Origin: an uncultured bacterium | GTDB taxonomy: Bacteria; Hinthialibacterota; Hinthialibacteria; Hinthialibacterales; Hinthialibacteraceae | Assembly: GCA_964517495.1 (NCBI GenBank) | Contig: CAZFER010000019.1 | Span: forward strand, 19,835 to 83,834 | Direction: 5' to 3' | Length of the DNA stretch: 64,000 nt | Shown here: positions 1,228 through 63,846 of the stretch, one piece after another | Layout: each line of letters opens with the position of its first letter | Position numbering within the stretch: the stretch's first letter is position 1 | Position numbers and translations under genes: made by a program | The notes under the pieces: model-generated | Told to the model about the DNA's origin: nothing | What the model saw: the letters and a program-made list of their open reading frames with translations, nothing else | Database searches by the model: none

Positions 1228-2397
1228 TTATTGAGAAACATGTACAAAGGCGTCATAAGCCTCTTTGGTTTTGCCTTCAACCGCACCATTTCGATGAATC
1301 CACAAACGGTAGTTCATCGTTACTCCATCATCATCCGGTGAGAGTTGATGGGTTTGCATACCCGGCCAGCAAACGCCAATAAAACCGTAATGGCGCAGCA
1401 ACCAAATGGATGGATAATCGATATTTTCTTCATCCTGAAAAACAGCAATCCCTGAAAAAGAATCCCGATCGTTAAACCGGGCTGATAAATCCGCCCAGGG
1501 AAAAGCGTCGTGCAACACATCACGTTTCTGCAAACCGGTTGAGGTTGTGATCTGGGTATCCTGGCGCTGCCCAAAACGAAGATTAAAACCACCATACCCT
1601 TTGTTCGGTTCACCTAGAATGGTAAGCGGCTGCCCCACCGCTTTCCACTGCACCTGCACATCCATTACCCGGCCTGTATCACCGGCGCGGTAGATGACGT
1701 AATGGGTAATCTCTTCCATCACTTTTTTCTCACCCACATAACAACCGCTTTGAGTGCCCAACATCGCACACACAGGACCGGTCTCTTTATACAGCCATTT
1801 TTCAAAACGATAGGACATTGTGGTCAATGACCAGTTATCATAAATTTTGTCACCAATTCGAATACGTGGCCACCCGCAATAAAGCCCGCGATGATGGTAA
1901 TGATCCCGTGGGTAATCATCTGTAAGAATCTCTCCATCCAACCCATAAATGGGATGAACAAAACAGCTATGATATCGCTCCTCACTGACATTGGGATTTG
2001 GAATCATGCCATGATTGTAAACAAAAACCGGTTTGCCATCTTCATATAATCCCAATCGCTTCTCGTCCTTTTCCTTAAAAGCAAAAGGTGAATCCACCGG
2101 TTTTTTATCGGATTCAATCAGCTTCATTTCAAAAGACTGGTTGGTTTTGGCAAGACTCGCAGGAAGAATAAAATGGATCCGCTTGGCAACATGATTGGAC
2201 CGTTGCACAGGAAGACGTTGTTTCAACCCATCCGTTTCAACTGATAGTTCGTATGAACCGTCGTCTGCCAATGAGGGTGATGATATGGCGTCAAAATCAC
2301 ATTGAACAGGAACATCAATCTCATAGTTCAAATCTTTCAGTTCGAAAGGAGCGGCTTGAAAAGTCAAAAGCGAAAGGAGCACAGCAAACGTATACAT
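1228..2397 (-). CDS. secreted hypothetical protein, possibly PmoA-like/DUF6807
   Basis: 389 aa ORF with an ATG start and an N-terminal signal peptide (MYTFAVLLSLLTFQAAPF). No motif I can assign with confidence. Confidence 0.55.
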   Translation of the reverse strand: MYTFAVLLSLLTFQAAPFELKDLNYEIDVPVQCDFDAISSPSLADDGSYELSVETDGLKQRLPVQRSNHVAKRIHFILPASLAKTNQSFEMKLIESDKKPVDSPFAFKEKDEKRLGLYEDGKPVFVYNHGMIPNPNVSEERYHSCFVHPIYGLDGEILTDDYPRDHYHHRGLYCGWPRIRIGDKIYDNWSLTTMSYRFEKWLYKETGPVCAMLGTQSGCYVGEKKVMEEITHYVIYRAGDTGRVMDVQVQWKAVGQPLTILGEPNKGYGGFNLRFGQRQDTQITTSTGLQKRDVLHDAFPWADLSARFNDRDSFSGIAVFQDEENIDYPSIWLLRHYGFIGVCWPGMQTHQLSPDDDGVTMNYRLWIHRNGAVEGKTKEAYDAFVHVSQ

Positions 2398-2447
2398 GGT
2401 CTTATCATCCTTTTATTTATTTTATTTCATATTATCCTACATTTTAC

Positions 2448-3437
2448 TTAATAAGGTCCGCGAATATGATCTTTTACCTTCTCCTCGTAAAACGGCTTTA
2501 ACTGGGCATGCAATTCCGGGCTCAAAGGCGGTAATTCACTGGCGCTGATATTCCCTAAAACCTGCTGCGGATTTCGTGCGCCCGGGATCACCACACTCAC
2601 CGCATCAAAATCAAGAATCCAGCGCAACGCCATTTGCACCAGGGTCATTCCTTCCGGCACCATGGTTTTCAATTCATCCGCCAATTCCACTCCCTTTTCG
2701 AACGGCAAACCGGCGAACGTTTCACCGACATTAAACAGTTGGCCATCACGATTAAAGTTACGATGGTCATTTTCAGCAAAGGTGGAATTCTTTGTTAATT
2801 TCCCCGCCAATAATCCACTCGCGAGCGGCAGTCGAATAATCAATGCGATTCCTTTTTGCTTGGCTTTATCAAAAAGCACATCGATAGGTTTTTGCCTAAA
2901 AATATTGAATATGATTTGCAGCGACGCCAATCCTTCCTGCTCCAGGCAAAAGAGCGCCTCCTCCATCGATTCCACACTTGCCCCAAATTGCTTGATTTTC
3001 CCTTCCTGTTTCAATGTCCGCAACCACTCAAACATGTCGCCCTTTTTCAGTTCATCAAATGGAAGGCAATGCAATTGGGTTAAATCCAATGCCTCAACAC
3101 CTAATCGCTGAAGTGACGCTTCGGTATGCTTGCGAAACCACTCAAAGGAAAAGTTCTGCGATCCTCCTGGGTCAGGAAATCGCCCTAACTTGGAAGCGAT
3201 AAAAATCCTATCCGATCGGCTCTTTAAAAATCCCCCAATTAATGTTTCACTTCGTCCCGCGCCATACACATCGGCCGTATCAAAAAACGTAATGCCATTA
3301 TCCGCCGCAGTTTCCAACGTTCGCAGCGCGTCCGCCTCACTGACATCCCCCCAATCAGCGCCGCCCAACTGCCAGGCGCCCAAACCAATTTCCGAGGTTT
3401 GCACACCAGTATTTCCAAATGTTCTGTGCTTCATCAT
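2448..3437 (-). CDS. aldo/keto reductase
   Basis: 329 aa. AKR N-terminal block (FGNTGVQTSEIGLGAWQLGG, ITFFDTADVYGAGRSE). Paralog of the gene at 114..1157. Confidence 0.85.
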   Translation of the reverse strand: MMKHRTFGNTGVQTSEIGLGAWQLGGADWGDVSEADALRTLETAADNGITFFDTADVYGAGRSETLIGGFLKSRSDRIFIASKLGRFPDPGGSQNFSFEWFRKHTEASLQRLGVEALDLTQLHCLPFDELKKGDMFEWLRTLKQEGKIKQFGASVESMEEALFCLEQEGLASLQIIFNIFRQKPIDVLFDKAKQKGIALIIRLPLASGLLAGKLTKNSTFAENDHRNFNRDGQLFNVGETFAGLPFEKGVELADELKTMVPEGMTLVQMALRWILDFDAVSVVIPGARNPQQVLGNISASELPPLSPELHAQLKPFYEEKVKDHIRGPY

Positions 3438-24385: not shown

Positions 24386-24892
24386 TCACCTTTTCCAATT
24401 CGTACGAAAATCTAAAAGATGTCCAAACTGAAAAGCATTGAATGATTGGATTCCAAACTGCGCACATACGTCCGGAATCCTGCGATTATGACGTTGGCTT
24501 CTGGGTTTGGAACTTTCGGTTGTGACAACCGACCGGCTTGTAGGATCAACTAAAGCGTAAGCAATTAAAAACGGATCACGACCAATTGCCTCTAGCTCTA
24601 TATCATTAAGGTCAGGGGCATATCCCTCATTTGTAACCTTTCGAACGAGATATATATCCACCTCTTCTTCGAAGCATAATGCGCTTTGTGTTGTGCTCTG
24701 TTTTGCCCATTCTGCTAGAGTATCTTTTCCCTTTTTCCCTTCCTTTATTTCTTCATAAATCTCAATAGGGATTTTAACCCTGCCCTGCTCTCCTTGATAA
24801 ATGAGCCATGTCCAATACTCGTCAACACGTCCAATTGGATAGTAGTCCCGGTTGGCATCGATTAGAACGTTTGCATCTCGAAGATAAAGCAA
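24386..24892 (-). CDS. DUF4411 family PIN-like nuclease
   Basis: 168 aa with a TTG start 10 nt after the upstream stop. LYLRDANVLIDANRDYYP N-terminus with conserved acidic residues, typical of DUF4411. Confidence 0.6.
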   Translation of the reverse strand: MLYLRDANVLIDANRDYYPIGRVDEYWTWLIYQGEQGRVKIPIEIYEEIKEGKKGKDTLAEWAKQSTTQSALCFEEEVDIYLVRKVTNEGYAPDLNDIELEAIGRDPFLIAYALVDPTSRSVVTTESSKPRSQRHNRRIPDVCAQFGIQSFNAFQFGHLLDFRTNWKR

Positions 24893-24902
24893 TAATAATC
24901 TC

Positions 24903-26111
24903 CTATATTACATGTACAGGTCGAGCAGCTTCAATGACTCCCTGAACATTTTTGGCCTTTACTCCTAGAACAATTCCAGCCTTTGTTGTGCTCAAAGCAC
25001 CACTATACATCATTCGGTCAACGAGATGAACAAGGGCTTCACCAACTTTACGTTTCTGAAGATTATAATAACTCGGTCCCACGTTTTTTTCTTGTTCACG
25101 ACGCTTGGCGCGCTCACAAGCTTTACTATCAAGAAAGTCCTGTCGGAAAGTTTTTCGTAATTTTTCATAATGGTCATAGTCAAAACGCCCTATACGATAA
25201 AGTTTATACGCTACCATGGTGCTGCTCACATTGTGTGTTCTCCCCAAAACACTGATTTGTTCTTTAGCATCTGCAATATCTGTTTGCTTATCTAATTCAA
25301 TATCCTTTAATACCACCTCCGGAAGCAGGAACTCGCTTGCCACGTCATTACAAAATTTTTCAATGCTTTTTACAGCAAATTCACCGCTGACGCCTGAAGC
25401 GCCAAGCCACAAATGAGCCAGTTCATGAATCAAAGTGAAGCACAATGCACCTTTGGAGTCGTTCGCATTGATGGCGATGAAGGGCGCAATATCGTCAGCG
25501 AGAGCAAATCCTCGAAATGCATCAACATTAATTGTCGTGTAATAGTTCCCAAGATTATCAACCAGTATTACGAAAATACCAGCCTTTTCTGCTTGTCCCC
25601 GAAGATAAGAAAAAGCGCCCTCAATTCCTGCTTTGTGGCGGTATTCTTCAAGATCGAAAGACATATGTTTACGAATTGAATGTACGACAGTTTTTACACC
25701 CTCTTTCATTTCACTAGAACCGATAAAAGTCAAAGGCTTGGCTTCATCTTCTTCAATCAACATAGCGCGCACGAGAGACTGACGCGCATAAATTTTTCTA
25801 ATGACAATATCTACAAGAACATTATCGGAATGATCGATGGTTTCCGGGAGTTTACGGTAATCCCTGCCTCTGTCTCCTATTCGTGGCCGATCACTGAGAT
25901 AGAAGGTTAGAAGGGGACGTCGATAGTGTTTCGCCATCTTGACCAACATAGATCGTGTCGGAATTTTTTTTCCTTCTTCTAAATCTTTAAGCCGCTCAAT
26001 TGGAGATACACCGCCCACCTCGTTAATATTTAGTCTTTTTACGGCCTCTTCAGGTGTAATACCTGCTGTTTCACGTGCCCATCGTAGTATGTTTGGATTC
26101 ACCTTTGGCAT
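24903..26111 (-). CDS. XRE-family HTH regulator fused to an ImmA/IrrE family metallo-endopeptidase
   Basis: 402 aa. N-terminal HTH region (ILRWARETAGITPEEAVKRLNI). HEXXH zinc-peptidase motif (FTLIHELAHLWLG) in the C-terminal domain. Confidence 0.8.
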   Translation of the reverse strand: MPKVNPNILRWARETAGITPEEAVKRLNINEVGGVSPIERLKDLEEGKKIPTRSMLVKMAKHYRRPLLTFYLSDRPRIGDRGRDYRKLPETIDHSDNVLVDIVIRKIYARQSLVRAMLIEEDEAKPLTFIGSSEMKEGVKTVVHSIRKHMSFDLEEYRHKAGIEGAFSYLRGQAEKAGIFVILVDNLGNYYTTINVDAFRGFALADDIAPFIAINANDSKGALCFTLIHELAHLWLGASGVSGEFAVKSIEKFCNDVASEFLLPEVVLKDIELDKQTDIADAKEQISVLGRTHNVSSTMVAYKLYRIGRFDYDHYEKLRKTFRQDFLDSKACERAKRREQEKNVGPSYYNLQKRKVGEALVHLVDRMMYSGALSTTKAGIVLGVKAKNVQGVIEAARPVHVI

Positions 26112-30989: not shown

Positions 30990-32418
30990 CTAGTTGTTTC
31001 TTGGACCATAATGCGGTGTGGGATGCCCCACTTCATAAGCCCCCATGTCGGGAGCCTTCCCGGTATAATTATCGTTAATCCCTGGTAGTTTGTCACCTGC
31101 ATCAACCACCGGTGCATCTTTCCTTAAATGCAGATTAACTTCACTCGGTTGGTAAAGGCGTCCCTCGTTATTGGGTGCATGTTCCGGTTCAACGGCCTCA
31201 CGGAATAATTCCTCATAAGTATTCACTTCGATACCATGCAGTTCCCGCCCGGTTTCTTTCTCCATCGCTTGCAATGAAGGAAAGGCTTCACCACCGATTA
31301 CAAAGGGATTCTCAATGGGAAGCCCTACCCGATGGGCATTGTAATCCAATATTCACCGCATAGCCCGCCTTTGTCCTTCCCCACGCTCCCCCACTATCCG
31401 GATTAAACCGATCGGCAGGATTCCGCCCTATTATCACATTATCAGCAATATAAAAATCGGTGGAACGTCCATCCTGGGCCAACACCCCATACTGCACCTG
31501 CTCAATCCGACAATGCTTAACCGTCAATCCTTTGCAGCCCATCACTCCCTGAAATCCACCATGAAAAGCAATCCGCGCATTACGCAAGATCAAGCCTTCA
31601 AAATGTAGATAATCAGCCGCCATGATGTTAAACAGCACATCACTATCATCCCCGTCAATAATCACATCACCATCACCAGCAGCAACAATTGCTATGGGTT
31701 TATCCGGTAAACCATCCGCCACAAGCGTACGCGTTCCATGCAGCCATAATCCAACATTATCTCGATAATTGCTCCGATCCGCTTTGTAGGTCCCGGCATG
31801 AAGTTTGATAATGGTACCCGGTTCGGCTCTATTTGGATGGACGGTCTGATAATTATCACACCAGGTATGAAAACCATTCACCGCATGCATGATCCCTTTA
31901 TAAGCCGGTTCTTCTTTTGGCCCCTTCCAATCTGGCGGATACACATGTCTTTCTTCACCCCCATTAAAAGGCACAGGCTCACAACGCGTTGTACGTGTCA
32001 ATTCCTTCACCGCTTCACCCATTACTCCGTCAGGATCGTGAAGTTCCAGGCGAACTTCATACGTGGTGGCAGGCTCAAGATCCATAATACTCCCAGAAAA
32101 TCCCTCAGGAATCCGATACATGGGTTGATGGTTGGGATCGCCAAAATTCCCATATCCAGGTGGCACTTCCCGGCCTTTCCCAACTCGATAGAGAGGTGGA
32201 TATTCATGCCAACTCGTATCCCCTGCCTGACGATACTGCACCGCTACCGATGCATTTCGGTTCTCATCACCTTTTATTCGCCACTCAAATCCAAGACAAA
32301 TAAGCGTCGGCCGTTCTACAATCAATTCCCCTGATTCCACTAAATCTTTAGTATCGACAAAATACGCTGATGCAAGCGTAGAATATATAATGATTACGGT
32401 GGGCAATAAAGGTATCAT
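30990..32418 (-). pseudogene. right-handed beta-helix (pectate-lyase-fold) secreted protein split by a frameshift
   Basis: The 368 aa piece (31312..32418) ends ...KAGYAVNIGLQCPSGRASH*. The 119 aa piece (30990..31349) has no ATG and overlaps it by 38 nt. It carries the usual C-terminal DAGDKLPGINDNYTGKAPDMGAYE motif. Fused reading gives ...AGYAVNI(G)LDYNAHRVGLPIENP... Confidence 0.5.
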
Positions 32419-32450
32419 ATATAATTTCCTTTCCCTTCCCTTCCCTTCCC

Positions 32451-32891
32451 CTAAAAAAAACGATCTAAAATCAAATGGCTGACATAACCCAATAACGCAG
32501 CAATAAAATAGGGTAATAAAGCCATCGGCGATAGGCCACTATATTGAATCGCTGCAATATACAACCCACCCGTAACCAATAGCATCCCCCCCACACTATG
32601 GGTCCAGCCACGATGACGCCCAACAATGGGTAGGACAATGATTAAACCAAGGTATGCAGCCTTTTCATATTCATGACGCAGGATCAAAACGGTATCCAAA
32701 ATCACAAACCCGATAAGAAACACCGTCTGCCCTTTGCTCTTAATATCCACATCAGGCCACAAACCAAAAAAAACCGCAAGCGCCACACACCCTGCCTTTT
32801 CCCAAATTGACATCGGCAGCCAAAAGGGAAACAAATAAAGCAATCCACAAAAAAACAACGCGGCAGTAATGTGAGATTTATAACCAGGCAT
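32451..32891 (-). CDS. membrane-bound metal-dependent hydrolase (YdjM/DUF457-like)
   Basis: 146 aa with four hydrophobic helices. His-containing motifs (GHRGWTHS, SHLILD). Confidence 0.55.
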   Translation of the reverse strand: MPGYKSHITAALFFCGLLYLFPFWLPMSIWEKAGCVALAVFFGLWPDVDIKSKGQTVFLIGFVILDTVLILRHEYEKAAYLGLIIVLPIVGRHRGWTHSVGGMLLVTGGLYIAAIQYSGLSPMALLPYFIAALLGYVSHLILDRFF

Positions 32892-33328
32892 AGGATTTAA
32901 TCAGGTTTTTTAGTATTTTTTCATTCTTTTTCTAAAATCGTGCAATGATTGTTTATAATAATATGAATCAATCACTCCAGACAGGCGGGTGTTTGCCTGA
33001 ATGCAAAGATGGGAGAAATTATGCAAAACATCCGATGCTTCTTGAATAAACGCTGGCTATTCTACACAACAATTTGTATCACATTTATCCTCATCGTTAT
33101 GGTTTAAAATCCTGAGTTTAAAGGAAATATCACGGAAGAATAGTCAAATATCCTGAAAAACTTGAAAGTCCGCCTGCAAAAAGCCATTACCCGCTCTAAT
33201 AAAAACTGGCTGCGAAAAATTATGGAATATATAGGGATTTGAAAATACACCAAATCAAAAGAATTGATTTTTATTCTCAATAAATATTATAATTACCACA
33301 TTAAAACTATGAATTTGAGGTCAAGAAG

Positions 33329-33604
33329 ATGGTTGATATAAAAGAAGCCGTAAAATATGGGGTGCATTTTTTGAAAGAAATGTATGAGGATAAAGAAATT
33401 TCCGATATCACATTAGAGGAAATAGAAATGTCCGAAGATTCCAATCACTGGTTGGTAACCATGAGTTTCATCAGACCAAAAGCCACCGAAAATATCCATG
33501 ATGTATTCAGCCCAAAAGAATATGAACGTACCTACAAAATTTTAAAAGTTTCCAGAGATGATGGCTGTGTCATCTCCATGATGGATCGAATGATAAATGT
33601 TTAA
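33329..33604 (+). CDS. small hypothetical protein, candidate antitoxin/partner of the downstream PIN protein
   Basis: 91 aa with a GAGG ribosome-binding site. It overlaps the downstream ATG by 8 nt (ATGTTTAA). Lies in a ~30% GC islet. Confidence 0.4.
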   Translation: MVDIKEAVKYGVHFLKEMYEDKEISDITLEEIEMSEDSNHWLVTMSFIRPKATENIHDVFSPKEYERTYKILKVSRDDGCVISMMDRMINV

Positions 33605-34097
33605 TAACATTCAAATTCAATTTGAACGATATTATAGCAGTGGAATCATCGTTGATACCAATATCCTACTGCTTTATTTCATAGGAGAATACGACATAAA
33701 TTTTATTCCACGTTTCAAAAGAACCATTCAATTCACAATTGAGGATTATGAACTGCTGACATTAATTTTAAGACGTTTTAAAAGGATTCTTACTACCCCC
33801 AACATATTGACTGAAGTTTCAAGCCTTGCAAATTCACTAAAAATGAATATCAAACCACATTTTTTCGATTCGTTTTCAAAAAATATATCTATGTTGGATG
33901 AAACATATCTGGATAGTAAATCATTGTCAAAACAAGATGAATTTATAAAATTTGGATTGACAGATATTGGAATTCATCAATTGGCAAACAAAAAATATCT
34001 TGTTCTTACAGATGATTTCACATTAGCGCAATATCTTAAAAAGCATGATGTTCCCGTCGTGAATTTTAACCACATTAGAACATACGCTTGGAAATGA
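33597..34097 (+). CDS. PIN domain nuclease-like protein
   Basis: 166 aa. GIIVDTNILLLYF N-terminal Asp motif. Central TEV glutamate. C-terminal LVLTDDFTLAQYL acidic motif. AT-rich codon usage. Confidence 0.55.
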   Translation: MFNNIQIQFERYYSSGIIVDTNILLLYFIGEYDINFIPRFKRTIQFTIEDYELLTLILRRFKRILTTPNILTEVSSLANSLKMNIKPHFFDSFSKNISMLDETYLDSKSLSKQDEFIKFGLTDIGIHQLANKKYLVLTDDFTLAQYLKKHDVPVVNFNHIRTYAWK

Positions 34098-34153
34098 ATA
34101 CAATTCCTAAACAACCAAATTTCCTGAGATTTGGAATGAATTCTTTAATGTAA

Positions 34154-37100
34154 TTAGTCAGCTTTGATCAGCGCCTCTTCACACCGTTCAATATACTCCC
34201 TCTGCCTTTGAGAACGCTTCGGCCCATCAGCACCAATTTGCCAGGCCTCTTTCGCTTCATCCTCCCGATCCAAAGCCGCCAAGGCCTTCCCCTTCCAATA
34301 ATAGGCTTCCGCCTCCTGCGGTTCAGCAGGACGGCCAACCCCCAAATGCTTGGGATACGTCAGGGCTTTGGTAAAATCATCAAGAGCCAGTTCATATTTT
34401 TCCTGTTCCATATACAATTTCCCACGTTCAATATGAGCGCGTACAAATACGTTCCTTGAAACAGTCCGGTTTTCCCAGTTGGAAAAGAAAGCATTATCCA
34501 ACAACGCAATGGCATCGCTAAAACGCTCTTCATCCACATACGCCTGCGCCAACACCTCAATAATATCAGTGCGCCGTTCCTCTGGCTGAGGCATGGATTC
34601 AAGTAACGCAATGGCTTGAGGACGCTGCCCATCGCTGATTAAAATTTGCGCCAGGTCGTAATACAACGTCTGATCTTCCGGCCGTGCGGCAATCGCCTTG
34701 CGATAATAATCAGCCGCATTTCGAAGATCGTTCTCTTCCTTCCATGCATACAAACCAAGATTTCGCTGAGCCACACTTAATGACGGTTTAAGCTCAACCG
34801 CTTTGCGCCACTCTTCAACCGCCTCATCCAAACGACCCAATCCACCATACAGATTGCCCAAATAAAGCCGGGCATGAGCATCATCTGGATTCTGCTCCAA
34901 TGCATTGGCTAATACATCGATACTCTCAGGCCGTGAGGGAAACACATAATCCGTGGGCAGCGAGGCAGCCAGTTTCAACGCTTCATCCGCTTTTTCACGA
35001 TGGTCTAAATGCCCCGCAATATAGGCGAACAGATAATGTGGCATGGGTTTTTCCGCAACATCTGGCATATGTTCCATACACGCGGTAAGAATGGCTTCCG
35101 CTTCTGACCACAGCCCCAACTCCAACCATCGATAAATCAACTCCTCTGTTTCAAACGCATCTTCACCTAAAAATTCACGGCTTCCCCGGGCAAATCGTTC
35201 AAGCGCATTCGCATTCATCAACGCCAATACCGAATGGGGTAACAAATCTGTAGGATACTGCTTGGCCAATGTTTCAGCCGCTTCAAAAGTCCCGCCTAAC
35301 ATGCCGAAATCATGGTACTGCGCATAAGCAAAACGCGCCAATAAAAGATGATTTCGAGCACGTTTATCCGGTGGATTCAACACCGACGCTCGCTCAAATG
35401 CTTCAACGGCCTCCCTATAGTTTCGCTCCCGCATATAAACACGGCCCGCCAGCTCATATCCCAAACCGGAATTGGGCATAATCTTGACCGCCTGATAAGC
35501 CGATTCAAGCGCCTGTTCCAACTTATCCTGTTTGAATTGAACCGCACCCAAATAAAACCACGCCATGCCATCATCCATATCACGTTCCACCGCCCTTTTC
35601 AAACGCTCTTCCGCCTTTTGATAAAGCCCCACTTCCAAATCCAACACCGCCAAATTCCTCAATGCCGGTGAATAATTCGCGTCCTCGTTCAAGGCCTTTT
35701 GATACCATTCCCTGGCGGCTTCTCGATTGGTTTGTTTGTCGAATAGCAGGCCTTTCAAGTAACATTCTTCCGCCGTCATGGCTTCCTCATTCTTTGTATC
35801 AAGCCACGAAGGTTCAGGCGGCGTTTTCTCGGGAATATCCAAGGGTGAGCTATATGACACTAATATTTTACCAGATTGAGTCCGCACCTCAATTCGAATT
35901 GGAACCGTTGGGGCGGGTTTCAAGGTCAACTTCACGGATTCTTCCGGTGATAAATTCACCGTCTTTCGCAGCCACACATCATCCCCCACCGTAAGTGTAC
36001 ACTCCGCTCTGTCATAACGAGCAGTTGAAATCATGCTGACATCCAGCCTGGGCACGCCCTCTTCCCGGCTTCGATGCGTTTGAATGGCAAGATCACGAGT
36101 CGCATATTCAAAACCATCTCCCAAACCATGTACCGGATACCACCATTCACGCCAGGCCACCCTTTCACGTGGATACAACAAACCATAATCCGCCTGAGTT
36201 AAAAGCGGACCACTTTGTACTTCGATATACTGCTCATCCCCTTCATGCAAGTTCGCCTGGCTGACTAATCCATCATCCGATTGTCCCCACGTCCAGGCCT
36301 TTTTCCCGATTAAAATATTATGATCAGCGTATTGCACTATCCCCCGGTCCAGGTCCACATCATAAGCCCCAAAGAAATCAAACTCACAATCATAAGCAAA
36401 CACCGAACTGGGCCGATCATAATTTTTCAGCCAACTTAAGTCTTTTCCTTCATGAATCGGCCATGAATAATAGTAATCCCCGCTATGGTTGGTGCCCAGC
36501 GTCATAGGATAGATAAAACGGGTGCCTGGTAAACAGGGAAAAGCAGTGCAATTCCAGAAGTAGTATGGATGGATACCATCCTGTGGATTATACAAACTAA
36601 TCCGCTCATCAAGATAGGCCTTCCCGGGATGCAACGTCAATCGTACAGTCCAACGGGTGCGGAAAATCTGTTCCGTATTCGATATCAGCAAGGATGCCGA
36701 ACCATCACGATTTTTGATGATTCGAACATTAACCGGCGAAACCACCGTCACCGTATGCCCATGCGGCCCTGTGTTCCATTCAATCCCCCCTGATATCCAG
36801 GCCCCTCGCATGGCAATCAAACCAGGCTTGATCACATCATTGCGGTGAAACATCTCCTCACCCGAACTTTTGTCAAACACCGAATGAATACGCCCACCCA
36901 GCTCCGGCAGGCAGGTGACTCTCAAATATTCGTTTTCCAAATGGAACGCCTTGTATTCCACATCCACCTTCTCAGTCGAAAGGTTATCCTGCATGGTATA
37001 CGGATAAATAATCGAACCTTCAAGCGCATAATACGCAGGATTAATATCATCCGGCCCCCACGTATAAGTAGGAATGCTGATCGTACCCTCCCACGCCTTT

Positions 37101-37189
37101 ACCGAGGCTTGGGCCGTGTTCGTTATCGCTCCACTCAATACCATCAACGCAGCTAATAATAGAATCCGAAACGTTTGAAAATATCTCAT
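34154..37189 (-). CDS. secreted TPR-repeat protein with a large N-terminal beta-rich domain (possibly DUF5107-like)
   Basis: 1011 aa with a signal peptide. The C-terminal ~550 aa carry multiple TPR-like helical repeats (AWFYLGAVQFKQDKLEQALESAYQAVKIMP etc). Confidence 0.65.
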   Translation of the reverse strand: MRYFQTFRILLLAALMVLSGAITNTAQASVKAWEGTISIPTYTWGPDDINPAYYALEGSIIYPYTMQDNLSTEKVDVEYKAFHLENEYLRVTCLPELGGRIHSVFDKSSGEEMFHRNDVIKPGLIAMRGAWISGGIEWNTGPHGHTVTVVSPVNVRIIKNRDGSASLLISNTEQIFRTRWTVRLTLHPGKAYLDERISLYNPQDGIHPYYFWNCTAFPCLPGTRFIYPMTLGTNHSGDYYYSWPIHEGKDLSWLKNYDRPSSVFAYDCEFDFFGAYDVDLDRGIVQYADHNILIGKKAWTWGQSDDGLVSQANLHEGDEQYIEVQSGPLLTQADYGLLYPRERVAWREWWYPVHGLGDGFEYATRDLAIQTHRSREEGVPRLDVSMISTARYDRAECTLTVGDDVWLRKTVNLSPEESVKLTLKPAPTVPIRIEVRTQSGKILVSYSSPLDIPEKTPPEPSWLDTKNEEAMTAEECYLKGLLFDKQTNREAAREWYQKALNEDANYSPALRNLAVLDLEVGLYQKAEERLKRAVERDMDDGMAWFYLGAVQFKQDKLEQALESAYQAVKIMPNSGLGYELAGRVYMRERNYREAVEAFERASVLNPPDKRARNHLLLARFAYAQYHDFGMLGGTFEAAETLAKQYPTDLLPHSVLALMNANALERFARGSREFLGEDAFETEELIYRWLELGLWSEAEAILTACMEHMPDVAEKPMPHYLFAYIAGHLDHREKADEALKLAASLPTDYVFPSRPESIDVLANALEQNPDDAHARLYLGNLYGGLGRLDEAVEEWRKAVELKPSLSVAQRNLGLYAWKEENDLRNAADYYRKAIAARPEDQTLYYDLAQILISDGQRPQAIALLESMPQPEERRTDIIEVLAQAYVDEERFSDAIALLDNAFFSNWENRTVSRNVFVRAHIERGKLYMEQEKYELALDDFTKALTYPKHLGVGRPAEPQEAEAYYWKGKALAALDREDEAKEAWQIGADGPKRSQRQREYIERCEEALIKAD

Positions 37190-59888: not shown

Positions 59889-60295
59889 TCGAAATTATTC
59901 CTTTCGAAAGTCATATTAATCAACAACTTAGAACCAGTAGTATTCACTCTTTGGGAAAGAGAATACAATTCCATCTCATAAAAAGTATAATGTTACAAAT
60001 CCGTACCTCAATAGTTTGAACTTCAATCAATGAAAACCAATTTTTTGTGTTTAAATCAGTTAGGTGATTAAGTAATATGTCGAAAATGTTTCAATTTACG
60101 TCATGTGGTCGATTATGTTCCTTGAAAGATTGGAATTATATCCAAATAAAATTAATAAACTTTTCTTCAACTTTCAACTTGTAATGTTTTGTAATGTATT
60201 CTATAATGAATGCTAAAATATGTTTCAATATATATATTAATAAAATAGGGTCTCGTTGAGGGATATAATTCATCTTGAAGACAGAGGATATTAAG

Positions 60296-60865
60296 ATGCC
60301 AGTTCAAAAACAAACTCAACGAAAACATCTGCAATGTGTGGTTTGTGGCCAGGGATTCATGTCCACCTTTGATGAAAAGTTGGGTGTTTATCCGGTTTAT
60401 CATTCCAAATCCAAGACAGAGTTTTTGTCATGTGAATCACAATTTTTCGAAATGTTGCTCAAATTGTACAAATGTTTACATTCTTCTGAAACCAGCAAAC
60501 AGATGAATGAGCTAATGAATGATGCCGATTGGGGCATTATTCTGCTCAAACGTGAATTCCTCATGTGGTGTTTGACCTGTGGATATTTAACATTGGACAA
60601 TTTGAAGCGAATTATTGTTCCTCCCGCGATTGACGATTTTACCAAAGATTTGCTGAGTACTCATAAGTTAAACGATCCGAACTATATACCTCAAGCGATG
60701 GATTATCTGAAATCGGCTTTTCACCATTTGAAGGATGAATTGCACCCCACCAATGTGAATGAATTTGATAATTTGAACCCCCAAAAAGAACTCGCTCCAG
60801 AAGCCCACAAATCAGTAAGAATGCACACGGTTGACCTGATTGGGATTTCTCAAAGGAACTCATAA
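60296..60865 (+). CDS. hypothetical Cys-containing protein
   Basis: The internal ATG follows a GAGGAT ribosome-binding site (the ORF track starts at 60275). Lies adjacent to a ~30% GC intergenic region at 59890-60290. No family recognised. Confidence 0.45.
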   Translation: MPVQKQTQRKHLQCVVCGQGFMSTFDEKLGVYPVYHSKSKTEFLSCESQFFEMLLKLYKCLHSSETSKQMNELMNDADWGIILLKREFLMWCLTCGYLTLDNLKRIIVPPAIDDFTKDLLSTHKLNDPNYIPQAMDYLKSAFHHLKDELHPTNVNEFDNLNPQKELAPEAHKSVRMHTVDLIGISQRNS

Positions 60866-60935
60866 TATTAAGGATAGGTTCATTCTCATCATTGAAAATA
60901 AACAGATGGGTTTTTATTGTTTATCAAAATGGTCA

Positions 60936-62444
60936 TCATAATTCCCAACCTTTCCGGTATTTGCGGTACATCAACTCATTGGCTTTGGATGAGTTGGTGA
61001 ATTCGCGTTGTTTTGCGTTCCAATACAGCTTTTCATTGACCCGCAAGGCAATATTTCCAAGTGCGATAGTTTGGCTAAAGTCTTTGGCATCATTAAAGTT
61101 AGCGCCGGAGGGTTTACCTCCTTTACACGCTCGAAGCCATTGATCCAGTTCATCGATGGGGCGAGGCAAGTATGGATCAGGTGGATTAAAGGCCTCCATC
61201 TTCTTTTTGGGAATCAATCGCGGATCGCCTCCACTGAAATCAGCCAGGATTTTGCCTTCATCACCGATGAATAAGAGTCCCTCATTGGGCATAGATTCAC
61301 CATCTTCTACCAATTCTTTTGGCATGGGTGGGCGCAAGCCGCCGTCATACCAATAGAGGGAGAGTTCCGGCATATCCTCGCGGGCGGGGAATTCCCAGTG
61401 GATGGTTGATGCGCGGGGATAGGAAATCATGTTATCTTGTTTTTCCCACAAGTGACTGACAATTTCCCAATATTGGCTACGGCTGGCTTCGATTGATTTG
61501 GGTGATCCTAACTTCATGATTTTAAAGATTTGATAGAAGCTATAGTGTCCCATATCACCCAAAGCACCTGCCCCGAAATCATACCAGCCGCGAAAGACGG
61601 CGTGGGTCAATGTGGGATGGTAGGGGCGATGGGGTACGGGTCCCAGCCATAAATCCCAATCCAACCCTTCGGGGATGGGTGGTGTTTCAGACGGATATTG
61701 GGTCATCCCTTGTGGCCAGAAGGGGCGTGATGACCAGTTATGAACTTCACGAACAGGGCCAATGGCTCCATTCCAGATCCATTCGCATATGGTGGCCGTG
61801 CTTTTATTCGAGGCCGCGCAGAAGAGGTGGGTGGCAAGACCGGTTTCTTTGGCTTTATCGGCTGCCAGATGAATTTCGTTAAGCACATTGGAGATCGGTT
61901 TATGGGTGATGGCGTGCTTGCCTTTGTTGATGGCCGCCAGCGCGACAGTTGCGTGGAGGTGATCGGGAGTCATGATATATACAGCATCGATATCCTCTTC
62001 ATTTTCAAGCACTTCACGAAAATCCCGATAGGCCTTGCATCCGCTATATTGGCCAGACGGTTTGTTTTTGGCGTAATAGCCCTCGACAATTTCCTGTCCC
62101 ACTTTGCGGCCACAACGGCATCCTTTGATCCCTTCACCCCATTTGGGTTCACCGAGGAAATCGCGTACTTTATTGCGAATTTCATTGCGGGACCATTCGA
62201 TGTAATCGTTGCTATCCTCATTGGGATCACACACGCAGGCGATGTGTACATCGGGATTGGGCAGCGCTCGCATGAGTTGACGAACGCCTTGGGTTCCGGT
62301 TCCGATATAGGCAATGTTAACTTTATCGTTTGGTGAGACGAGTTTTTCACCTCCTAAAACAGAACGTGGAATGATGCTTAGTGCGGTGATCGGCGCAGAT
62401 GCTTTTAAAAATTGGCGGCGAGTTGGTTTTGAGTATTTTCCCAT
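60936..62444 (-). CDS. Gfo/Idh/MocA family oxidoreductase, Tat signal
   Basis: 502 aa. RRQFLKASAPITALS Tat motif. Rossmann block (VNIAYIGTGTQGVRQLMRAL). Confidence 0.85.
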   Translation of the reverse strand: MGKYSKPTRRQFLKASAPITALSIIPRSVLGGEKLVSPNDKVNIAYIGTGTQGVRQLMRALPNPDVHIACVCDPNEDSNDYIEWSRNEIRNKVRDFLGEPKWGEGIKGCRCGRKVGQEIVEGYYAKNKPSGQYSGCKAYRDFREVLENEEDIDAVYIMTPDHLHATVALAAINKGKHAITHKPISNVLNEIHLAADKAKETGLATHLFCAASNKSTATICEWIWNGAIGPVREVHNWSSRPFWPQGMTQYPSETPPIPEGLDWDLWLGPVPHRPYHPTLTHAVFRGWYDFGAGALGDMGHYSFYQIFKIMKLGSPKSIEASRSQYWEIVSHLWEKQDNMISYPRASTIHWEFPAREDMPELSLYWYDGGLRPPMPKELVEDGESMPNEGLLFIGDEGKILADFSGGDPRLIPKKKMEAFNPPDPYLPRPIDELDQWLRACKGGKPSGANFNDAKDFSQTIALGNIALRVNEKLYWNAKQREFTNSSKANELMYRKYRKGWEL

Positions 62445-62994: not shown

Positions 62995-63846
62995 ATGTCT
63001 GAGAATTCTGCATCTCCTTCTTCGATGGTATATCTAGCTAGTTTTGATCAAATTACGTTTATTCAAGATGTTACGTTTGATCAGCGGGTTGATGAACTTC
63101 CTCCACAATTGGTCATTTCACCAGGTTGTTATGGTTTTAACGGGAAAACTTATGAGTTAAAAGAAGAAGGTCTTTACCGATTTGTGTTTCCATATGAGCA
63201 AAACCAGCAACGGATTGTTTACCATTGCAATGTTGAGCGCTTGTTGTCTTCACTTGCCTGGTTGGTTGCTCATGGTACGGCAGATAATGTCAAATCGATG
63301 GATGAAAAAATCGCAAAGGCGCTTCAACATAAACTATCAATGACTTGCACACCTATTTCCCGTATTGTGAATATCATTCTCCAATCGTTGAATATTGAGT
63401 CTCGTGTTGTGCAGGGTTTTACACCGTTCGAAAAAAATGGCCATACGGCCAATGAAATCTATTTTGACCAGCATCAAAAATGGGTATTTTATGATATTGA
63501 TTTTAAATGTTATCTCACTCGTCTTGGCCAACCTCTTTCATTCAGGGAACTTATCCATTTAGCGCCCAGTGGGGATTATTCGATCCATTCAATTTCCAAT
63601 GGTGCGAAAGTGGATATTTCGCAATTTGTTTACAAGGGTTATGATTGCACATTTTTATATGAGAGCACCCAATCTGACCTTGCTTTAAAATCGTTTTACC
63701 GGCGCATGATGGTAATGCCTTTGATTGAACAGCAGAGCCGGTTCTATTTTTGTGATGACAAATTTCGCCATGATGCCGAAAGTTATTCTAAACATTATAT
63801 TTATATCTCCAAAGATGAGTTTGTAGATAAGTTTTACAGTGCGTAA
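62995..63846 (+). CDS. hypothetical protein, possibly transglutaminase-like cysteine peptidase superfamily
   Basis: 283 aa. Cys...His...Asp spacing (MTCTPISR...GHTANEIYFDQHQKWVFYDID) resembles the transglutaminase-like core. Tentative. Confidence 0.45.
   Translation: MSENSASPSSMVYLASFDQITFIQDVTFDQRVDELPPQLVISPGCYGFNGKTYELKEEGLYRFVFPYEQNQQRIVYHCNVERLLSSLAWLVAHGTADNVKSMDEKIAKALQHKLSMTCTPISRIVNIILQSLNIESRVVQGFTPFEKNGHTANEIYFDQHQKWVFYDIDFKCYLTRLGQPLSFRELIHLAPSGDYSIHSISNGAKVDISQFVYKGYDCTFLYESTQSDLALKSFYRRMMVMPLIEQQSRFYFCDDKFRHDAESYSKHYIYISKDEFVDKFYSA

Follow-up and report, generated by a model that had tools for sequence, protein, structure and literature searches.

A putative toxin-antitoxin-type module pairing a VapC-like PIN protein with a small folded partner in an AT-rich islet of an uncultured bacterium

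Introduction

The genome of an uncultured bacterium of the Hinthialibacterota contains an AT-rich islet with two overlapping genes, which raises the question of what this pair does and how it reached its present position. The islet is located in contig CAZFER010000019.1 of assembly GCA_964517495.1, within a stretch of 64,000 nucleotides (nt) that was analysed as a whole and is called the window here. The upstream gene encodes a protein of 91 amino acids (aa), referred to as the partner, and the downstream gene encodes a PIN-domain protein of 166 aa. A first-pass annotation, made from the sequence alone, proposed that the two genes are a horizontally acquired, non-canonical toxin-antitoxin (TA) or defence candidate. 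VapBC is the most abundant TA family, and its antitoxins are thought of as a DNA-binding domain combined with a disordered toxin-binding tail.

Our analysis indicates that the islet is probably a two-gene module of the TA type that functions autonomously and was acquired horizontally. Each testable element of the earlier proposal held, which supports it as an interpretation. A TA or abortive-defence function is the best-supported reading, and is based on the VapC-like fold with its acidic tetrad, the overlapping gene upstream, the pairing, co-evolution and faster evolution of the partner, and the patchy, AT-rich occurrence of the module in plasmid, TA-islet and defence contexts.

Results and discussion

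The downstream gene encodes a predicted VapC-like PIN domain

In its predicted structure, the PIN protein has a parallel beta-sheet at the centre of a Rossmann-like alpha/beta/alpha sandwich. Residues D20, E73, D123, and D140 are invariant in 26/26 and 82/82 family members, and in the structure model this acidic tetrad occupies the canonical PIN positions, placed relative to the predicted strands as in VapC. Asn22 and Asn156 are also invariant in 82/82 sequences, and Asp139 is conserved in 79 of the 82. The motifs that had been recognised as PIN hallmarks are present (VDTN at residues 19-22, TEV at 72-74, and TDD at 138-140), and the tetrad is intact in a proper alignment. The local motifs could be matched by eye to those of Shigella VapC, the sequence of which was first verified against annotated plasmids: DTN to FMLDTN, T-E-V to LMEL, GLTD-x-GI to GPFDQMI, and LVLTDDF to LIIVTNN.

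The PIN protein has 1,648 relatives in a large protein collection, some of which are named 'PIN domain-containing protein' (NCBI) or 'FCF1' (JGI). The protein from the window has no match in Pfam, NCBIfam, PADLOC, PHROGs or PDB sequences, either alone or as a family profile. Divergent members of the family have no match among curated sequence models, and a profile search of the PDB returned no PIN protein. The alignment to Shigella VapC by hhalign gave nothing significant, and matches to the Pfam model PIN_9 were limited to E = 0.018 in 2 of 26 relatives. Therefore, the placement of the protein among PIN domains rests on structure prediction. This prediction identifies the downstream protein as a PIN domain of the VapC-like type. 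The putative toxin is a divergent member of a known superfamily, since NCBI already names the large protein a PIN domain protein.

With its 166 aa, the PIN protein is about 30 aa longer than a typical VapC, and, unlike VapC, it is recognised by none of the Pfam PIN models. Among named sequence groups, the nearest is PIN_9/COG1412, the AF0591-like archaeal 'Fcf1-like' PIN proteins (PDB: 1o4w), which have been described as archaea-specific and of unknown function (Matelska et al. 2017, PMC5499597). In contrast, the family described here is bacterial, always has a small partner, and is not matched significantly by the PIN_9 model.

The upstream gene encodes an acidic protein of a different type from known antitoxins

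The partner from the window has an isoelectric point (pI) of 4.86, and its structure was predicted with a mean predicted local distance difference test (pLDDT) of 89.7. A single helix packs against a four-stranded antiparallel sheet in a cystatin/PepSY/NTF2-like fold, which can be likened to those of cystatins, latexin, metalloprotease propeptides, and the colicin M immunity protein. The predicted structure is not that of an RHH, AbrB, HTH or Phd protein, and no DNA-binding domain was found in it; the earlier statement that the 91-aa protein has no recognisable antitoxin fold is thus borne out. The family is acidic, with a median pI of 5.07 and 74 of 82 members below pI 6, and residues Glu30, Glu31, Trp41, and Arg87 are invariant in 82/82 sequences.

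The alpha-plus-beta fold of the partner resembles those of PepSY (PF03413) and of the cystatin, latexin, and protease-propeptide inhibitors. PepSY domains are typically extracytoplasmic, whereas the partner is predicted to be cytoplasmic and is paired with a nuclease, not a protease. Its N-terminus is charged, and neither a signal peptide nor a transmembrane segment was found, the 19-residue hydropathy maximum being 0.45 for the window protein and 0.53 for the family median. The window protein scores below every Pfam threshold, including that of PepSY, and 10 of 47 relatives match Pfam PepSY weakly (best E = 1.1e-4).

A word-indexed search with the single partner sequence found only the protein itself, and the apparent orphan status was overturned by the open reading frames (ORFs) upstream of PIN homologues and by profile searches. 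These ORFs share the pattern MIDVKEAVK...LEEVEL.DDE..W.VT...REYK.VKI...G.V.SMKIR. A profile built from three sequences recovered 85 relatives, and an exhaustive profile search of 1.84 billion representatives identified 3,898 clusters at E <=1e-3 and 2,409 at E <=1e-10, nearly all of them stand-alone proteins of 85-110 aa. The numbers of relatives of both proteins show that the two ORFs are real genes, not chance ORFs in AT-rich DNA.

The two genes form a co-evolving pair

In 80/80 genome loci and in all other loci examined, the PIN gene is immediately preceded by the partner gene in the same orientation. According to the record titles, the 80 loci belong to Cyanobacteria, Acidobacteriota, Binatia, Latescibacterota, Planctomycetota, Gemmatimonadales, Anaerolineae, 'Deltaproteobacteria', Nealsonbacteria, and others. 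The same arrangement is found in 4/4 viral contigs from IMG/VR, which carry more divergent copies.

Both ORFs of the window are exactly as first described. The genes share the 8 nt ATGTTTAA, and the start codon of the PIN gene (33597-33599) lies within the final codons of the small gene (...AAT GTT TAA, with the stop at 33602-33604). The junctions of 82 pairs include a 4-nt ATGA overlap in 66 cases and an overlap of 14-20 nt in nine. The distance matrices of the PIN and partner proteins are correlated, with a mirror-tree r of 0.82 that was reached by none of 999 Mantel permutations. The partner evolves faster than the PIN protein (mean distances of 0.53 and 0.44, respectively). The partner is the obligate, co-evolving half of a large two-gene family.

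The order of the genes bears on the idea of a secreted effector and immunity pair from a polymorphic-toxin system, in which the PIN protein would be delivered to competitors and the small protein would be its cognate immunity protein. This is highly improbable. The partner gene comes first, which is the reverse of the toxin-then-immunity order, and no secretion-system genes are adjacent in the loci examined. Furthermore, the PIN protein is a stand-alone protein of 164-172 aa in 82/82 pairs, and has neither an N-terminal delivery domain nor a signal peptide.

The strict pairing, together with the invariant residues kept in both proteins, would also fit a non-toxic two-subunit RNA-processing enzyme, with the PIN protein as a housekeeping or regulatory RNase and the partner as its structural or specificity subunit. 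The absence of an antitoxin-type DNA-binding domain from the partner, the name FCF1 that JGI gives to some members, and the proximity of the archaeal Fcf1-like group of unknown function agree with such an enzyme. The distribution and composition of the module and the VapC-like structure of the nuclease speak against it, and we regard this explanation as quite unlikely.

The islet has the lowest GC content in the window

The islet extends over the 1.26 kb (32892-34153) between a gene for a YdjM-like membrane protein (32451-32891, -) and one for a DUF5107-TPR protein (34154-37189, -). Its GC content is 31.5%, compared to 45.1% for the 64-kb window, which corresponds to z = -4.1 relative to all sliding windows of the same size and is the minimum of the 64 kb. 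The lowest window of that size that does not overlap the islet has 34.7% GC, and the immediate flanks have 47-50%. The sliding-window profile thus confirms the drop from about 47% to about 30% that the first-pass annotation had noted. The small gene has 34.8% GC. The PIN gene has 29.7% GC, and its GC content at third codon positions (GC3) is 26.3%, with z = -3.7 relative to 40 other genes.

The GC content of the module is below that of its flanks in 83/83 loci, by 11 points on average and by as much as 24. Since it is lower in every locus, the AT-rich signature is a trait of the module family and not of one low-GC donor. The GC3 of the module is lower in 75 of 82 loci, yet it tracks that of the host (r = 0.8). 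The closest pair to that of the window, with 63% identity of the PIN proteins, has 38% GC in a host of 53% GC. No DNA-level similarity was found between this locus and the window, and therefore there is no sign of a recent transfer between the two genomes.

Next to orthologues of the DUF5107-TPR gene (45-60% identity) in 80 metagenome loci, neither the module nor a YdjM gene was found. These loci share no synteny with the window, so an empty insertion site could not be defined. The position of the islet as the GC extreme of the window, the absence of the module from these 80 loci, the patchy distribution of the family, and its presence on five cyanobacterial plasmids support the proposed horizontal acquisition.

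Over nearly the whole window, the GC skew has negative values of about -0.1 to -0.35, and it reaches 0 to +0.18 inside the islet (33100-33550). This shift, a second discontinuity in composition, is partly explained by the location of the islet genes on the strand opposite to that of their neighbours.

The module occurs in plasmids, TA islets and defence operons

The neighbourhoods of the module are not conserved between loci. In Binatia, it shares an islet of variable content with BrnT/BrnA, HicB, DUF433, and DUF2283 genes; in locus L181, it is adjacent to a serine recombinase and HTH/HicB genes; and in Blastocatellia and Chloracidobacterium, it is next to ordinary metabolic genes. The module was found in no sequenced phage genome in a search of these.

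In about 18 cyanobacterial genome loci and in both plasmid loci examined, the pair is embedded in an operon that encodes a DUF499 ATPase, a 142-aa protein, the pair, a DUF1156 methylase, and a helicase. PADLOC identifies HmaC (E = 5e-101), HmaB (E = 8e-72), and a Snf2/PbeA/HmaA-type helicase in this operon. The pair is thus positioned between HmaC (the DUF499 ATPase) with the 142-aa protein on one side and HmaB (the DUF1156 methylase) on the other, followed by the HmaA-type helicase, and only 3-5 nt separate the PIN stop codon from the start of HmaB. A 2026 survey renamed the Hma systems Type-1 BREX-related, and reported that BREX and BREX-related (BR) loci contain endoRNases of the HEPN, Schlafen, and, less often, PIN types as embedded 'backup effectors' (PMC12839542). 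The survey mentions PIN endoRNases generically only, and the present partner is not mentioned in it.

These operons suggest an alternative in which the pair is a phage-defence effector, with the small protein as a stable sensor or gatekeeper that would release or activate the PIN nuclease upon a phage trigger, either by itself or by serving BREX-related (Hma) systems as a backup effector. CapH/CapP-like regulators are encoded upstream of the pair in Nostoc, which agrees with such a role. However, most copies, including that of the window, stand alone without Hma or other defence genes beside them: the neighbours of the pair in the window are the YdjM-like and DUF5107-TPR genes, and a tblastn search with Hma proteins against the whole window gave no match. 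In addition, neither protein matches any PADLOC model. A gatekeeper overlaps mechanistically with a TA-type inhibitor, and sequence alone cannot separate the two; we consider the sensor or gatekeeper role unlikely.

Several individual loci have unusual structures. In the Nostoc loci L173 (5523-5669 and 6480-), L062, L077, and L073, a copy of the first 49 codons of the DUF1156 (HmaB) gene lies directly upstream of the pair, with 61-82% amino-acid identity to the complete gene on the downstream side. These direct repeats of the HmaB 5' end bracket the pair, and the arrangement looks like a recombination scar from the insertion or exchange of a cassette. In loci L048 and L051 of Microcoleus, the genes for the DUF499, 142-aa, DUF1156, and helicase proteins are reduced to short fragments, and the pair is intact. 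The module has outlived the defence operon around it in these two loci, which, as an anecdote, fits addictive behaviour. In the divergent locus L180 from a TARA metagenome (2029-3101), the partner is a tandem domain duplication of 202 aa with two matches to the hidden Markov model, and the PIN gene has an in-frame stop after ...TEVSNLIG, which could reflect decay of the toxin with retention of the partner, or a sequencing error. The retention of the partner next to an interrupted PIN gene is a second anecdote that fits addictive behaviour.

Proposed mechanism of the module

In the TA-type reading, the product of the downstream gene would be a metal-dependent PIN endonuclease that belongs structurally to the VapC type, and its substrate would most likely be RNA. 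The partner would be made just before the nuclease from the same mRNA, through translational coupling. The folded, acidic partner may bind the nuclease one-to-one and keep it inactive, probably by occluding the acidic active-site groove. The co-evolution of the two proteins (r = 0.82) gives indirect support to such neutralisation by binding. Conserved arginines of the VapB and FitA antitoxins reach into the acidic pocket of their toxins in the FitAB and VapBC structures, and the invariant C-terminal Arg87 of the partner is a candidate to reach the acidic pocket here. If the partner were lost or titrated, for example upon loss of a plasmid or island, proteolysis or phage infection, the nuclease would be released and would arrest growth, resulting in addiction or abortive defence.

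The module shares with Shigella/F-plasmid VapBC, Neisseria FitAB, and M. tuberculosis VapBC a small, co-directional, overlapping upstream gene. It differs from them in that the partner is compact and globular, without an AbrB, RHH, HTH or Phd domain and without a disordered C-terminal tail that wraps around the toxin. Because it lacks a DNA-binding domain, the partner cannot autoregulate the operon alone, and the regulation must differ from that of canonical type II systems. A separate HTH gene is present upstream of the pair in some loci, and there is none upstream of the pair in the window.

Several points weigh against a TA function. Toxicity and its neutralisation are inferred for every member of the family, and the role of Arg87 and the interface between partner and nuclease are speculation. 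The partner has neither the DNA-binding domain nor the disordered toxin-binding tail of canonical type II antitoxins. PIN_9/COG1412, the nearest named group, is AF0591-like and has no assigned function (Matelska et al., PMC5499597), and the JGI label 'FCF1' on some members hints at RNA processing. Literature searches for PIN with PepSY, or for VapC with a cystatin-like antitoxin, found nothing on this pair. Furthermore, the GC3 of the module is not lower in 7 of 82 loci, and AT-richness can partly reflect amino-acid composition.

A candidate family of folded nuclease inhibitors

No description of the partner family, or of its pairing with a PIN protein, was found in the searchable literature, and searches for PepSY in connection with TA systems returned unrelated papers only. 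Pfam, NCBIfam, PADLOC, and PHROGs do not cover either gene, and therefore current TA and defence finders miss the module. In surveys such as that of Matelska et al. (2017, PMC5499597), PIN-containing TA systems were called only where the neighbouring gene resembled a transcription factor.

We tentatively suggest, while regarding it as somewhat less than an even prospect, that the partner is the founding member of a superfamily of antitoxins or nuclease inhibitors that had gone unrecognised and comprises about 3,900 clusters at 50% identity. Its members would be rigid, globular, cystatin/PepSY-like inhibitors of a VapC-like PIN protein, without a DNA-binding or disordered region, and BREX-related (Hma) operons would have taken up the module repeatedly, as an abortive backup effector. 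A large PIN family strictly paired with a folded, inhibitor-like partner that does not bind DNA would extend the repertoire of antitoxin architectures, and would also prompt one to ask what regulates an operon of this kind. The cyanobacterial insertions into Hma/BREX-related operons are a concrete system for the idea of backup effectors. The advance remains incremental: new TA pairings appear in the literature regularly, and the function is inferred in this case.

Sequence features of the islet and its surroundings

The features of the islet are listed in Table 1. The promoter was identified in a consensus scan and is a candidate only, since sites of this type are no more frequent in the region than in shuffled sequences. 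No conserved ORF was found in the leader (32892-33328), and no terminator-like hairpin was found around the module. An Rfam scan of 32400-34400 gave two chance-level snoRNA matches (E ~0.5) and none below E 0.4.

Table 1. Coordinates of features in the islet, numbered from the first nucleotide of the window
Feature	Position	Strand	Description
AT-rich non-coding leader	32892-33328	.	part of the low-GC islet between the divergent YdjM-like gene and the module; GC ~0.30-0.35
Candidate sigma-70-type promoter, TTGATT-18-TATAAT	33264-33293	+	10/12 consensus matches
GAGG Shine-Dalgarno sequence	33317-33320	+	8 nt 5' of the small-gene ATG; read directly from the sequence
Small partner gene, putative antitoxin/inhibitor	33329-33604	+	91 aa; acidic, predicted cytoplasmic, cystatin/PepSY/NTF2-like fold
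Overlap ATGTTTAA, putative junction for translational coupling	33597-33604	+	8 nt; ATGA in 66/82 related pairs
VapC-like PIN-domain nuclease gene, putative toxin/effector	33597-34097	+	166 aa
D20 codon, first acidic residue (VDTN)	33654-33656	+	directly after strand 1; invariant 82/82
E73 codon, second acidic residue (TEV)	33813-33815	+	helix after strand 2; invariant 82/82
D123 codon, third acidic residue (GLTD)	33963-33965	+	N-terminal half of helix 116-130; invariant 82/82
D139-D140 codons, fourth acidic position (LTDD)	34011-34016	+	directly after strand 135-138

An imperfect repeat (33258-33285 and 34119-34146) brackets the pair with z = 2.5 relative to shuffled sequences, and was considered as a possible set of transposon-like terminal inverted repeats. 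This reading was rejected because the mean z across 81 module loci is only 0.6. The AT-rich leader contains an ORF of 28 codons (33022-33108, +) for the hydrophobic peptide MQNIRCFLNKRWLFYTTICITFILIVMV, which may have arisen by chance.

The window contains a second PIN-like pair at a distance of 8 kb. It consists of a DUF4411 gene (24386-24892, -; Pfam E = 2.6e-30) directly downstream of a gene for a 402-aa ImmA/IrrE-type Peptidase_M78 protein (24903-26111, -), both with a low GC3 of 0.34-0.35. DUF4411 has been described as a potential toxin of three-component TA systems (Matelska et al., PMC5499597).

Other patches of low GC content are present at 60001-61000 (34.8%), which includes an ORF of 196 aa without a Pfam match (60275-60865, 38.7% GC), and at 62995-63846, which corresponds to a gene for a transglutaminase-like protein (38.1% GC). 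A (TTCCC)x5 microsatellite (32426-32450) is located in the 32-nt gap between a gene for a 368-aa protein (31312-32418, -) and the YdjM-like gene.
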